From: a virus
Taxonomy: Duplodnaviria; Caudoviricetes
Virus record (IMG/VR): IMGVR_UViG_3300014205_000008
Location: 32,959-96,958 of that record
Reading direction: 5' to 3' (one strand)
DNA length: 64,000 bases
The notes beneath the pieces were generated by a model. The model did not search any database. It had not been told where the DNA came from and was given only the letters and a program-made list of their open reading frames with translations. Both the position numbers and the translations under genes were made by a program. This document shows, piece after piece, positions 55,559-63,854 of this stretch. The stretch's first letter is position 1. The number at the start of each line of letters is the position of its first letter.

Positions 55559-56203
55559 ATGAAAGAAATAAAAAAAATAAAAGTATATATTGTAGGAAAT
55601 TCAATACATTATAAAGATTTTATCTTTAATTCTGTTCTTGTAAACAATATTGATAACGCTGATGTGGTTTTGTTCACTGGCGGTGAAGATGTTAATCCTG
55701 CATTATACGGTGAGAAAACACATGTTACTACATATTACAACAAAAGTAGAGATGATGCAGAAATGAGCGAATATCAAGACGCTATTGATAAACAAAAGTT
55801 TATGGTTGGTGTTTGTCGGGGCGCTCAGTTGTTAACTGTTTTATCTGGCGGACTTTTGATTCAAGATATATTTAATCATTCAATTTATGAAAAACATTTA
55901 ATTAGATTTAATGATAACGATGTAGTTGCTATTACTTCTACCCATCATCAAATGATGTTCCCTTTTAATTTACCTGAAAATGAATATACTTTAATAGCTT
56001 GGTCAAACGATATATTATCTTTATTTCATTGTAATGGCGAAGGAGACGATATTGAAATTGAAAAAGAACCAGAAATTGTTTACTATAACAAAACTAATTG
56101 TTTATGTATTCAAGGACATCCAGAAAACATGAATCATCATGATGCTGCTGTAATAAAAATTAACGCTTTAATTCAAAAAGGATTAAATAATGAGCTTTTA
56201 TAG
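55559..56203 (+). CDS. Class I glutamine amidotransferase / peptidase C26 (PuuD-like gamma-glutamyl hydrolase)
   Basis: FTGGEDVNPALYGE; RD..E; GVCRGAQLL; STHHQ; IQGHPE. Confidence 0.9.
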   Translation: MKEIKKIKVYIVGNSIHYKDFIFNSVLVNNIDNADVVLFTGGEDVNPALYGEKTHVTTYYNKSRDDAEMSEYQDAIDKQKFMVGVCRGAQLLTVLSGGLLIQDIFNHSIYEKHLIRFNDNDVVAITSTHHQMMFPFNLPENEYTLIAWSNDILSLFHCNGEGDDIEIEKEPEIVYYNKTNCLCIQGHPENMNHHDAAVIKINALIQKGLNNELL

Positions 56204-56867
56204 TGAAATAACAATAAACAATTTTTCCATTTACAATGGCAAACGTATACTTTCTTCTAGTGCAGAACATAAAGACTGCTGTTCTTTTATCAAAGGTCTT
56301 AACCCAATTCAAAATGATGATACTGGTATTAAAAAATTTGTAATTCAGTATAATTCAGAAGGAAACAATAGAAGATTTATTGGTGAATTAGAAGAATGGT
56401 GGATAAAGAAACTGAAAGAATTAGATATAGATGTTGATTATCTTGGTATGGAAAACAATATTCTTTATGTTACTTTAAATATAAAACAAGATTATTGTGA
56501 TTATTTTAAACTTTTAGTTTATACTATGACTAGATTTTTATGGATTCATTATAGATATATATTAGAAGCAGCTTATATTCTTGAAAAAGAATATCCTGAG
56601 GTAGATTTTTGGACTATTTTTACAAGAGTTCATTCAATCATGACTTTTTCTAGATATTTTGACAACACATATTCTCTTTTTTATCCTAAAGTATTTATAA
56701 TTTTAGATAACAAACAGTTTACTAAGATATTCCAAAATCATTCTAATTGTAGAGGTGGAATTAATTCTTATTTTAATAGCTTTAACAAATACACACAACC
56801 CTCAATAGACGCCTTCGCCCCCGGTTCATATGAAGATTTAATTAATATTTATAAACGAATTTTTTAA
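56190..56867 (+). CDS. Hypothetical protein within the ligase cassette
   Basis: 225 aa; overlaps the upstream stop. Confidence 0.65.
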   Translation: MSFYSEITINNFSIYNGKRILSSSAEHKDCCSFIKGLNPIQNDDTGIKKFVIQYNSEGNNRRFIGELEEWWIKKLKELDIDVDYLGMENNILYVTLNIKQDYCDYFKLLVYTMTRFLWIHYRYILEAAYILEKEYPEVDFWTIFTRVHSIMTFSRYFDNTYSLFYPKVFIILDNKQFTKIFQNHSNCRGGINSYFNSFNKYTQPSIDAFAPGSYEDLINIYKRIF

Positions 56868-56870
56868 TAC

Positions 56871-61417: not shown

Positions 61418-61419
61418 TT

Positions 61420-62955
61420 ATGCCAGAACTTAATATTAATCCGGGTGGATGGGCTCCTTTTGATATAGGAGATCAACCTGAGCCAGTAAAAGTTAAAACA
61501 CGAAGGAAAAGTAGTAAAGACACACAAATAGATCCTGATTTAGTTTATTTCGATATTTATACAAATAAGGTTATACCTTCAGAATATGTATTTCGTATGA
61601 GAGAAGGAGTTTGTGATAAAAGAACACTTGTTTTAACTCCATATAATGTATTTATAAGTATTTTTTCTTCAAATACAGTAAGAAGTTCTGTAGAAAACGG
61701 ATTTGTTGATATTCGTGAATGCGAAAAAATTATAATTGGATTTAATGATAACACAAAGAGTTATATTTTTGATTATTATTTTAAGCAAAGTATACGTTTC
61801 CCTAGAGCTAAAATCTCTGGGGGAACTTATTATGTTTTAAACCCAGAAATTGCTATTAAAATAGGATTATTAGAAAGTATTTATGATGGAATTTTTTATC
61901 AAAAAGGTTTCTGGAATCCATCTACTGAACCTATTAAATATCACGATTTTGAGTATCCAAATATTACATCTTCTACAAAAGACTTAATCAAATATGGAAT
62001 TAAATCACCTACTAATGTTATAACTGAAAATAAGAATTACTCTTTTGGAGTTGAAATTGAAACTGCGGCAGGATATATTCCTTCTTATGTTGCGGCTAAC
62101 TTAAACATGAAAAGTGTTTATGATGGGTCTATTCGTGATAATCAGGGGAATAAACATGTTGGAGGTGAATATGTAACAGGTGTTTTATTTGGAGATAATG
62201 GTTTACGGCATCTCAATAAGATAGTTACAGAGTTATCACAAAGATGTTCTATTAACAACACTTGTTCTGTTCATGTTCATGTTGGAAATTTATCTTTTAA
62301 TAAAGAAACTATAGTTTTGTTATGGAAAACATGCCAAGCAGTTGAATCTGAATTGTTTGCCATGTTACCTACTTCAAGATCAACAAGCCTTTATTGTAAT
62401 AAAATGAAGCAACTTCCAATTAAGTTCAATAAAAAAGGATATAGTTATGATGTTTTAATTGATGAATATTACAAAAAGATATTCAAGATCATTTCACTTG
62501 GGAAAGAACCATGTAAAACTATTAATAAAGAATTTAATCATCCAGCAGGTCATAGTTGTGGATATGATACATCTACTCCTAGATATTGGTGGATTAATTT
62601 TATTCCTGCAATGTTTAATTTAAAAGGAAAAGGGAATTATACCATTGAGTTTAGACCACATTCTGCTACATTAAACTTTATAAAGATTAAAAATTGGATT
62701 CTTATAGTTTTAGGAATAGTTAGTTTTGTTGAAAATCATCAAAAATTTATTATTAATAATGATAAAATTACTCTTCGTGATATTATAAAATTAACATATC
62801 CAAATAAACATGAATATTTAATGGAATACATCAATAAACGAACAGAATTTTTTTCAGTTAGAGGTAATAATTCTTTAAGTGAAAAAAGCGAATACGAGCC
62901 AATTTCTAATCAAAATTCTTCTATTACAACATTAAAAGAAACATTATGGGGGTAA
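61420..62955 (+). CDS. Putative amidoligase (Amidoligase_2 / COOH-NH2 ligase)
   Basis: FGVEIET; DGSI; EYVT; CSVHVHVG; RYWWINF; TIEFR.HSATLNFIKIKNWI. Confidence 0.88.
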   Translation: MPELNINPGGWAPFDIGDQPEPVKVKTRRKSSKDTQIDPDLVYFDIYTNKVIPSEYVFRMREGVCDKRTLVLTPYNVFISIFSSNTVRSSVENGFVDIRECEKIIIGFNDNTKSYIFDYYFKQSIRFPRAKISGGTYYVLNPEIAIKIGLLESIYDGIFYQKGFWNPSTEPIKYHDFEYPNITSSTKDLIKYGIKSPTNVITENKNYSFGVEIETAAGYIPSYVAANLNMKSVYDGSIRDNQGNKHVGGEYVTGVLFGDNGLRHLNKIVTELSQRCSINNTCSVHVHVGNLSFNKETIVLLWKTCQAVESELFAMLPTSRSTSLYCNKMKQLPIKFNKKGYSYDVLIDEYYKKIFKIISLGKEPCKTINKEFNHPAGHSCGYDTSTPRYWWINFIPAMFNLKGKGNYTIEFRPHSATLNFIKIKNWILIVLGIVSFVENHQKFIINNDKITLRDIIKLTYPNKHEYLMEYINKRTEFFSVRGNNSLSEKSEYEPISNQNSSITTLKETLWG

Positions 62956-63854
62956 TAATAATTAAAAACAAATATATTTCTTCAGAAGATTTTAAAGCAC
63001 GAATAATTAAGTTAAAAAATAATTTTTATGCACAGAAAAAGACTGAATTTTCTTTAACTATATGTAAAAATTTTAATGGAAATATTGAACTTAATGATAT
63101 TTGTAATGTTAAAGAAGTAAGTGATCATTTAGCTACAGCAGAAATATATGATGTTGATTATGCAATTTGTTATTTAGGTTACTCTTTAGTAGAAAAAAGT
63201 TCGTTTAATATGTTTATGCCTTTGAGGTTTACTGAAAAATCTGGATATTTTGTCTATGATAAAGAAGGAGATATTTTTATTTATTTAGAAGGTTTAGCTC
63301 AGGAAACTTCAGTTTCTTTAGAAAAGAAAAGAGTTGAGACAATTAAATTTATTATAGATAATATTTTAAATCATAAAAACTATGAAAGTTATAAGTTAAA
63401 TGGATTTAAAGGATTGTTTATTAAAACAGCTTTATTTTCTTGTTTAAAGATTGTAATAGGTAATTCTAAAGATGTATATATAAGTGATGTTAATAACTTT
63501 TACAAAGATGAGAATATTTTATTTTCATCAAAAACAATAGTTAAATATATTGCTAATAAAGTAAATCCAGAATCAGTTTTTAAAAAAGAAATTGCAGAAG
63601 AACGAAAATTCTCACCCACGTTAACCGATTCTGAAGAAAAGAAAGTTAATTTTCTTTTAATAAAGAATAAAATTTATTTTATAAAAAAAGGAGGATATAG
63701 TAATGAACAATACGTAATTAAAAATATCTTTGGTGATTATTTTGTCACTTTAGAATCAAGAAAAACAAAAATCACTAGTAACACTACCCAATATGAGCTT
63801 GTAAATCATTATAATGTGTTTTGGATAAATGAACTATATGGAAAATCAATATGA
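62946..63854 (+). CDS. Probable catalytically dead class II GATase paralog
   Basis: Starts MGVIIIK (compare MCVIIxK); degenerate equivalents of HxR...HPF and HNG. Confidence 0.45.
   Translation: MGVIIIKNKYISSEDFKARIIKLKNNFYAQKKTEFSLTICKNFNGNIELNDICNVKEVSDHLATAEIYDVDYAICYLGYSLVEKSSFNMFMPLRFTEKSGYFVYDKEGDIFIYLEGLAQETSVSLEKKRVETIKFIIDNILNHKNYESYKLNGFKGLFIKTALFSCLKIVIGNSKDVYISDVNNFYKDENILFSSKTIVKYIANKVNPESVFKKEIAEERKFSPTLTDSEEKKVNFLLIKNKIYFIKKGGYSNEQYVIKNIFGDYFVTLESRKTKITSNTTQYELVNHYNVFWINELYGKSI

Follow-up and report, generated by a model that had tools for sequence, protein, structure and literature searches.

A crAss-like version of the phiEco32-type phage amidoligase cassette with a putative pro-enzyme amidotransferase and a probable decayed amidotransferase paralogue

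Which molecule is modified in the infected cell by a phage gene block that combines three predicted ATP-dependent ligases with enzymes expected to remove γ-glutamyl groups? This question is raised by ten co-directional open reading frames (ORFs) at positions 55559-63854 (plus strand) of a 64,000-nucleotide stretch of viral DNA, positions 32,959 to 96,958 of IMG/VR record IMGVR_UViG_3300014205_000008, hereafter the window. The block belongs to a known kind: it is the crAss-like version of the phiEco32-type amidoligase cassette, a neighbourhood predicted by Iyer, Abhiman, Burroughs and Aravind (2009; Mol Biosyst 5:1636), whose comparative-genomics study is cited in later papers for a role in cell-wall modification, superinfection exclusion or metabolite synthesis. 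Specific to the present copy are the crAss-like host genome, a C26-type enzyme, a leader on the N-terminal nucleophile (Ntn) amidotransferase, the pseudo-enzyme encoded by ORF10 and two near-orphan genes. As to the substrate, we tentatively favour a universal cytoplasmic compound, most likely a small molecule, over a lineage-specific protein, on the basis of gene content and distribution.

The cassette occurs in hundreds of phages, including LUZ24-type and phiEco32-type phages of Pseudomonas and E. coli and relatives of Salmonella phage 7-11 as well as Vibrio, Aeromonas and marine crAss-like phages, and 17 years after its prediction is one of the more extensive conserved sets of phage enzymes still awaiting a functional assignment. 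A full-text literature search on the cassette returned annotation mentions or citations of the 2009 prediction, with no product reported, which bears out an earlier note on this DNA that had described the product as uncharacterised. The present copy does not bring the identification of that product closer.

Composition of the cassette

The enzyme assignments were made by Pfam and PHROG profile searches combined with family alignments. The genes are tightly packed, with gaps of at most 12 nt and four overlaps of 4-14 nt between neighbours (Table 1). The earlier note, made from the sequence alone, had listed six enzyme families in close packing with intact catalytic motifs, and both statements hold: ORF1, ORF3, ORF4, ORF7, ORF8 and ORF9 are identified by the Pfam and PHROG searches, and the invariant or near-invariant family residues are kept in the alignments built here, from which catalytic activity of all six enzymes is predicted. 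Three further ORFs within the block, ORF2, ORF5 and ORF6, were absent from its list.

The ORF1 product matches Peptidase_C26 (PF07722; e-value: 1.8e-18; Bitscore: 67.5; cut-off: 20.5) and phrog_7218 (8.6e-42) and contains the triad C86/H187/E189, which is conserved in 95-97% of 94 homologues. Its nearest solved relatives are Lin1909 (3fij) and 7d4r-type chains, the latter deposited as 'probable glutamine amidotransferase' and presumably representing a Pseudomonas gamma-glutamyl-polyamine hydrolase. A weak match to the NCBIfam PuuD equivalog (2e-05) falls far under the curated cut-off. A second γ-glutamyl-directed enzyme, encoded by ORF7, matches PF06094 (8.8e-19; Bitscore: 68.7), with conserved Y7 and E58 residues and YtfP (1xhs) and PH0828 as relatives in the PDB.

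Two of the predicted ligases are encoded by ORF3 and ORF4. The former shows a match to PF14395 (5e-09; Bitscore: 36.2; cut-off: 25) and, over its full length, to phrog_3815 (7.2e-73), keeps all 36 family-invariant columns and has 3222 homologues at E<=1e-10 in a large protein collection, the best sharing 59% identity; among annotated phage proteins, the closest reaches 42%. A PDB search retrieved no solved structure related by sequence to either the ORF3 ligase or the ORF9 amidoligase. The ORF4 product matches PF08443 (2.6e-4; Bitscore: 21.1; cut-off: 21) and phrog_2599 (1.1e-19), and the ATP- and Mg-binding residues K98, E173, R175, K189, D240 and E257-x-N259 are conserved. Its matches to the NCBIfam models of the MptN, RimK and CofF alpha-L-glutamate ligases are far under the cut-offs (TIGR00768, RimK: 26.8 against 143.4 bits; MptN: 29.2 against 350), and as such ORF4 is predicted to be an ATP-grasp ligase at the level of the RimK-like superfamily only.

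Table 1. Features of the amidoligase cassette (window coordinates)
Feature	Position	Strand	Length	Predicted product
ORF1	55559..56203	+	214 aa	Class I glutamine amidotransferase / peptidase C26 (gamma-glutamyl amide hydrolase type)
ORF2	56190..56867	+	225 aa	Near-orphan; no family match
ORF3	56871..57665	+	264 aa	phiEco32-type COOH-NH2 ligase type 2 (GCS2/YbdK-like carboxylate-amine ligase)
ORF4	57662..58591	+	309 aa	RimK-like ATP-grasp ligase
ORF5	58593..58949	+	118 aa	Small phage protein (phrog_12005); accessory, non-core
ORF6	58946..59458	+	170 aa	Three tandem small beta-rich DUF6501-like repeats; accessory
ORF7	59471..59815	+	114 aa	GGACT/AIG2-like gamma-glutamylamine cyclotransferase
ORF8	59819..61417	+	532 aa	Ntn class II glutamine amidotransferase (GAT-II)
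ORF8 leader	59819..59908	+	30 codons	Hydrophobic helix, then Lys-Lys; putative removable membrane-associating propeptide
ORF9	61420..62955	+	511 aa	Beta-rich N-terminal region and Amidoligase_2 catalytic domain
ORF10	62946..63854	+	302 aa	Degenerate Ntn amidotransferase paralogue (~1-200) with C-terminal beta-rich part

Comparison with phiEco32-type cassettes

The resemblance to the phiEco32-type neighbourhood, which the earlier note had recognised, extends to domain content and to synteny with Kuravirus MN05, LUZ24, phi14:2 and 80 IMG/VR loci. As in phiEco32-type phages, the COOH-NH2 ligase type 2, Amidoligase_2, Ntn glutamine amidotransferase (GATase), ATP-grasp and AIG2/GGACT families are combined in one block in which the amidoligase adjoins the GATase, and here as there the block forms an early or replication-arm operon of a virulent podophage. 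The cassettes of MN05 (gp070-gp082) and LUZ24 (gp14-gp22, directly upstream of the primase/helicase) follow the order COOH-NH2 ligase, x, amidoligase, GAT-II, ATP-grasp, GGACT, whereas the order here is C26, x, COOH-NH2 ligase, ATP-grasp, x, x, GGACT, GAT-II, amidoligase, dead GAT-II, where x denotes another ORF. Relative to those two phages, the window copy contains a C26 gene and a leader peptide on the GAT-II, while it lacks the protein of approximately 200 amino acids encoded between their ligase and amidoligase.

The closest cultured relative is Cellulophaga phage phi14:2 (Crassvirales, Steigviridae), in which the GGCT, ATP-grasp, COOH-NH2 ligase, GAT-II and amidoligase genes lie within the replication module (gp048-gp052), between the primase and a uracil-DNA glycosylase, and in which the GAT-II likewise carries a hydrophobic leader, of 31 residues. 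The phi14:2 cassette differs in gene order, in the uracil-DNA glycosylase gene that follows the amidoligase, and in the absence of the C26 enzyme, ORF2, ORF5, ORF6 and the dead Ntn paralogue. As phi14:2 is cultured, on Cellulophaga baltica, knockouts of the same core are feasible. The order of the window is found throughout at a single locus, L004 (IMGVR_UViG_3300009149_000452), which has weak homologues of ORF2 and ORF10 (Gly substitutes for the nucleophile Cys in the latter) and a GAT-II leader. The ligase of L004 is 59% identical to that of the window and its ORF2 and ORF10 homologues 27-28%, while ORF5 is missing.

A tblastn search with the COOH-NH2 ligase retrieved 314 phage records, mostly podophages of Pseudomonas, Escherichia, Vibrio, Aeromonas, Proteus and Salmonella and including phi14:2, such that carriers of the cassette span the crAss-like, Kuravirus and Bruynoghevirus groups and others. 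A scan of IMG/VR with a single protein query found nothing; an alignment-based scan yielded the 80 loci, which together with the phi14:2 and LUZ24 regions gave a set of 82 loci whose ORFs were called and searched with iterated profiles built from the window proteins. By construction the COOH-NH2 ligase is present at all 82 loci, alongside GAT-II at 80, ATP-grasp at 77-80, amidoligase at 74-75, C26 at 73 and GGACT at 48. Gene order differs among lineages: C26 and the COOH-NH2 ligase are neighbours at 44/73 loci and ATP-grasp and GGACT at 20/48, while the link between amidoligase and GAT-II is nearly fixed. Among these loci, neither a small ORF nor any further protein family accompanies the core consistently from lineage to lineage. 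One of them, L009 (IMGVR_UViG_3300025288_000016), is listed at 96,958 bp, the very length of the window genome, by coincidence or a quirk of labelling; its sequence is different, with a GC content of 24%, no 40-mers in common with the window genome and a ligase of 44% identity.

Among 185,579 species-representative bacterial and archaeal genomes the COOH-NH2 ligase occurs 37 times, nearly always on phage-sized contigs of metagenome-assembled genomes. This indicates a module of virulent phages rather than of cellular genomes or common prophages, and the near-absence from cellular genomes makes superinfection exclusion of the lysogen type unlikely. The pair of amidoligase and GATase has furthermore been reported in an OM43 phage, in mycobacteriophage Marvin and in putative archaeal viruses (PMC10580990, PMC11706807), and its spread over very different hosts argues for a target that is common to those hosts.

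The amidoligase and its class II glutamine amidotransferase

The ORF9 product matches Amidoligase_2 (PF12224; 5e-15; Bitscore: 56.5; cut-off: 22) and has the invariant residues E212, E214, D235, S237, E250, H285, H287, E410 and R412. In its AlphaFold2 (AF2) model (mean pLDDT: 83.4; pTM: 0.80), a beta-rich region (~40-200) precedes the catalytic domain (200-500), which aligns at VIA Z values of 9.4-12.0 with YbdK-type GCS2, glutamine synthetase (GS), GCL, GmaS and Dop/PafA structures. The individual values, for YbdK-type enzymes (12.0), an arylamine-glutamylating GS (8wwu; 11.4), Dop (11.2), GCL (11.0), GS (10.9) and PafA (10.1), lie close together; the modelled fold thus confirms a predicted carboxylate-amine ligase and does not discriminate between a small-molecule and a protein substrate.

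The ORF8 product matches GATase_6 (PF13522; 3.9e-12; Bitscore: 46.8; cut-off: 27), and C31, R97, N122-G123 and D145 are invariant across 39 homologues, among them the contacts to the alpha-amino and alpha-carboxyl groups of glutamine. A PDB profile search identified PurF and GlmS (1e-19 to 1e-15). The AF2 model (mean pLDDT: 77.6) comprises a leader helix at residues 2-19, a confidently modelled Ntn domain (31-245; pLDDT >90), a disordered linker, beta-barrels at 281-345 and 358-397 and a long coiled coil at 448-520. The Ntn domain aligns with the glutaminase domain of GlmS (1xff; VIA Z: 26.0; rmsd: 2.7; 210 aligned residues), with PurF (Z: 25.3) and with EgtC (Z: 22.2). No Pfam family was found in the C-terminal half of any of the 39 homologues; this half is not a synthase domain. 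From sequence and model, the ORF8 product looks like an ammonia donor of the PurF/GlmS type for the amidoligase rather than an eraser of γ-glutamyl groups.

As the C-terminal half of ORF8 is not a synthase, a separate acceptor enzyme is needed. The two genes are separated by 2 nt in the window, and amidoligase and GAT-II genes are immediate neighbours, in either order, at 71/74 loci (96%); together, adjacency and the nature of the C-terminal half make the amidoligase the likely acceptor enzyme. The linkage points to a two-protein glutamine-dependent amidoligase as the probable arrangement, the near-obligate adjacency offering a defined two-protein assay, and we infer a physical coupling of the proteins only from that adjacency. 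The same logic, a glutaminase coupled to an ATP-dependent enzyme that activates a carboxylate, is followed by MurT/GatD, by AsnB, LtsA and AsnB1 and by PurF/GlmS, the last of which match ORF8 in the Ntn fold and the glutamine-binding residues. The acceptor here is, however, a GS-fold Amidoligase_2 protein, in contrast to the Mur-ligase or Asn-synthetase domain of MurT/GatD and the AsnB-type enzymes.

A putative propeptide on the amidotransferase

The predicted nucleophile of ORF8 is Cys31 and not Cys2; no in-frame start codon lies beside Cys31, and the next ATG is downstream of it. The predicted activity would therefore need removal of the 30-residue N-terminal peptide, which we regard, by analogy, as a removable propeptide. 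Cleavage of a leader before the nucleophile is known for Bacillus subtilis PurF; we know of no prior description of an Ntn leader that consists of a hydrophobic helix and basic residues ahead of the nucleophile. Extensions of 23-48 amino acids with this architecture are present in approximately 20 homologues of several lineages, including gp051 of phi14:2, while the remaining GAT-II homologues, sometimes close relatives of leader-bearing proteins, start with Met-Cys. The leader-bearing loci are the window itself, L002, L004-L006, L010, L014, L016, L017, L021, L030, L039, L044-L047, L051, L056, L057, L062 and L074. The recurrence of the leader points to regulation as a zymogen or to a location at the membrane. 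Such a leader could tether the pro-enzyme to the membrane in zymogen form, and because the positive charges come after the helix, the pro-enzyme would be placed at the cytoplasmic face.

A probable degenerate amidotransferase paralogue

The ORF10 product has no direct match in Pfam, PHROG, NCBIfam, the PDB, the Atlas or a BLAST search of the phage collection, no similarity to ORF8 was detected by BLASTP or by profile comparison of the families, and only two weak relatives occur among 1.8 billion representative proteins. The earlier note had considered it a probable dead GATase, and this is supported through an intermediate family. Several other lineages encode, after the amidoligase, a second small Ntn protein of 215-250 amino acids that starts with Met-Cys-[Ile/Leu]-Ile-Ile (loci L005, L010, L014, L016, L023, L037 and L065), usually with a 10-nt overlap with the amidoligase gene. 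All of those tested (7/7) match Pfam GATase_4, and they align with the ORF8 family at 97%. An hhalign comparison of ORF10 and three relatives with the small Met-Cys proteins gave a probability of 93% (E: 3.5e-07) over 184 columns from residue 1, and ORF10 and the small Ntn genes have in common the 10-nt overlap and near-identical DNA at the junction with the amidoligase gene. The nucleophile codon TGT has become GGG in the window and GGA in L004, replacing Cys2 by Gly, and the Arg, Asn-Gly and Asp catalytic positions are also lost. The homology of ORF10 to Ntn amidotransferases is transitive, and we hold it with moderate confidence; the alignments support ORF10 as a probable decayed paralogue that kept its place beside the amidoligase and gained a beta-rich C-terminal part. 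It would represent a clean case of a second Ntn paralogue decaying to a pseudo-enzyme and would reveal a dispensable activity. A second long GAT-II follows the amidoligase instead at L017, L021, L039, L042, L044, L047, L054 and L056.

Proposed mechanism and alternative substrates

ATP-dependent glutamyl ligases are paired with γ-glutamyl-removing enzymes in butirosin (BtrJ/BtrG), putrescine (PuuA/PuuD) and ergothioneine (EgtA/EgtC) metabolism, the ligases being of the ATP-grasp, GS-like or GCS-like type and the removers GGCT-like, C26 or Ntn enzymes. The cassette holds the same three pairings. This is an analogy only, as its enzymes show no significant membership in the families concerned, to which their matches are far under the cut-offs.

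From family chemistry and gene linkage, the following mechanism can be proposed. The genes would be a co-transcribed enzyme set in the replication and early-gene arm of a virulent phage, acting in the infected cytoplasm on a substrate that is not encoded by the cassette. The COOH-NH2 ligase and the RimK-like ATP-grasp ligase would use ATP to join a carboxylate, most likely that of glutamate, to an amine, drawing on host pools to build a small amide or peptide conjugate that contains glutamate. ORF8 would be made as a pro-enzyme whose cleavage before Cys31 exposes the nucleophile, after which the mature GAT-II may hydrolyse free glutamine and pass the ammonia to the neighbouring GS-fold amidoligase, which would activate a carboxylate as an acyl phosphate and convert it to a carboxamide. 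The C26 enzyme, by hydrolysis, and the GGACT enzyme, by cyclisation to 5-oxoproline, could strip γ-glutamyl groups from amines in a deprotection or editing step, likened to that of BtrG after BtrJ in butirosin synthesis and of PuuD after PuuA. ORF10, as a dead paralogue of a second Ntn hydrolase, may be retained as a non-catalytic partner. A write/erase system that makes a glutamyl peptide or tags host proteins or the cell wall, as envisaged in the earlier note, is compatible with the predicted enzyme families. We lean towards a universal small molecule as the substrate because no substrate-like gene is conserved with the core and the hosts are very different.

Several observations weigh against this proposal. 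The matches of the ATP-grasp and C26 enzymes to named enzyme families are far under the curated cut-offs, so that the choice of glutamate as building block is an extrapolation. The ORF8 Ntn domain is also well fitted by EgtC, a gamma-glutamyl amidohydrolase, such that the GAT-II could be an eraser and not an ammonia donor. No GAT-II/amidoligase fusion protein was found, although this is weak evidence, and cleavage of the ORF8 leader is itself a prediction. In the models, furthermore, the GAT-II beta-barrels and coiled coil, like the amidoligase N-terminal domain, have the appearance of modules for docking to macromolecules, which would favour a protein or envelope target.

Modification of cell-envelope precursors, the proposal of 2009, would engage two amidotransferase-ligase pairs in the amidation of peptidoglycan-precursor carboxylates at the inner face of the membrane, while the ATP-grasp ligase adds a branch residue and the changed charge of the wall blocks superinfection or premature lysis. 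Analogous reactions are those of MurT/GatD on D-isoglutamate and of the Ntn-type AsnB1/LtsA on diaminopimelate. Two linked GATase-ligase pairs are indeed present, the ORF4 product weakly matches the NCBIfam model of a pseudomurein-synthesis ATP-grasp enzyme (5e-06), and the hydrophobic helix and basic residues of the approximately 20 leader-bearing homologues would, under the positive-inside rule, bring the catalytic domain to the cytoplasmic face; such a reading is also what later papers cite from Iyer et al. (2009). Pfam and NCBIfam searches, however, found no Mur-ligase, peptidoglycan-binding or lipid-binding domain, most GAT-II homologues lack the leader and start with Met-Cys, and cleavage at Cys31 would free the enzyme from the membrane. 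The reported occurrence of the amidoligase and GATase pair in viruses that infect mycobacteria, or archaea devoid of a wall or of peptidoglycan, fits poorly too, and we regard an envelope target as unlikely. A protein target appears unlikely to the same degree. The GS/PafA-fold amidoligase would couple glutamate, through its gamma-carboxylate, to the lysine side chains or the ends of proteins from host or phage; extension of this tag would fall to the RimK-like ligase, and its erasure or recycling to the C26, GGACT and Ntn hydrolases, in a manner resembling pupylation or polyglutamylation. The alignment of the amidoligase model with Dop and PafA and the docking-type beta-barrels and coiled coil of the GAT-II agree with this; RimK is a protein glutamyl ligase, and GGACT enzymes act on epsilon-(gamma-glutamyl)-lysine. 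The fold is nevertheless equally close to small-molecule ligases (YbdK-type, GS and GCL), the core is not accompanied by a conserved tag-like or shared-tail protein, and no common C-terminal tail, acidic or SSB-like, is conserved in the GAT-II or amidoligase families. The more specific version, in which host proteins are modified in this way and the GAT-II is a membrane-tethered zymogen whose leader cleavage times the system during infection, we consider slightly less likely still.

Gamma-glutamylation of polyamines along the lines of the Puu/Pau pathways seems improbable. Here the GS-fold ligase would glutamylate putrescine or spermidine and the C26 and GGACT enzymes would release the amine, controlling free polyamines during DNA replication and packaging or countering polyamine-based host responses. 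The weak matches of ORF1 to PuuD and to the 7d4r-type chains, the GS fold of the ligase with its likeness to the arylamine-glutamylating GS, the action of GGACT on gamma-glutamylamines and the position of the cassette in the replication module are all in keeping with this, but every score is far under the family cut-off, the oxidase and dehydrogenase steps of the Puu/Pau pathways are absent, and three ligases and a glutamine-dependent amidation would be left unexplained. We give very little credence to the modification of nucleotides, DNA or tRNA, in which an amino-acid-type group would be attached to, or amidated on, a base or nucleotide. The cassette does have replication and nucleotide genes as neighbours in three phage groups that are unrelated (phi14:2, LUZ24 and, here, upstream of a split DnaB gene), yet this placement may only reflect early or middle expression, and none of the domains that typify base hypermodification, whether nucleic-acid-binding, glycosylase, kinase or transferase, was found in linkage with the cassette.

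Accessory ORFs and regulatory signals

The near-orphan ORF2 matches itself only in a search of 5.8 billion proteins, with no match in Pfam, PHROG, NCBIfam, the PDB or a phage tblastn search; its single homologue is syntenic (L004:1147-1836; 28% identity). Compared with the protein of approximately 200 amino acids from LUZ24-type cassettes, a family that itself has no Pfam match, it proved unrelated. ORF5 (phrog_12005; 9.3e-27) is present at 9/82 loci, and its Atlas feature and structure matches are unnamed phage clusters, described as phage ABA-sandwich-like. ORF6 (PF20111; 1.5e-05; phrog_4927/13504/31853) occurs at 8/82 loci. A single adaptor domain shared by the small beta-barrels of ORF6 and the C-termini of ORF8 and ORF10 was considered and discarded, there being no sequence similarity.

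None of the PADLOC defence models matches. A promoter scan performed no better on the sequence than on shuffled sequence, and the promoter and terminator scan of 18 kb gave no operon boundaries. The strongest terminator-like site of that scan, a hairpin (12-bp stem, 7-nt loop) with a T-rich stretch after it (61796-61826, plus strand), lies within the coding sequence of ORF9.

The phage genome

The genome was recovered as a single 96,958-bp contig with 123 bp repeated between its two ends, indicating that it is circular; the window represents the last 64 kb of the contig, and the cassette extends to the junction. The major head protein, portal and large terminase have PHROG matches of 1e-97 to 1e-128, and the large terminase shares 50.7% identity over 94% of its length with that of phi14:2, with gut crAss-like phages as the next matches. 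The genome is that of a crAss-like phage (Crassvirales), and its host is probably a marine or freshwater member of the Bacteroidota. No near-identical DNA was found in the phage collection. A 631-amino-acid protein encoded on the minus strand (window 41503-43398) shows, over residues 42-101, 60-67% identity with structural or minor tail proteins of Flavobacterium siphophages and 52% with a Sinorhizobium phage tail fibre, a hint that the host belongs to the Flavobacteriia or that a fibre-attachment module is shared.

Across the junction, the cassette is followed by a 71-amino-acid ORF, an uncharacterised ORF of 204 amino acids and the split DnaB-like helicase, whose successive parts (L001 796-1290 and 3053-3475; phrog_19 323-437 and 482-587) are approximately 1.8 kb apart. 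A LAGLIDADG endonuclease gene (L001 6799-7554) lies beyond them. Further along (genome C1:13741-14517; L001), a protein with a dATP/dGTP diphosphohydrolase N-terminal domain (PF18909; 3.7e-28) lies near two metallophosphoesterases and a ribonucleotide reductase; elsewhere among phages, the domain is associated with editing of the nucleotide pool. A single ORF of 4881 amino acids (genome C1:20399-35044, minus strand; partly window 1-2086) presumably encodes a giant virion protein or an RNA-polymerase-type polyprotein typical of crAss-like phages.

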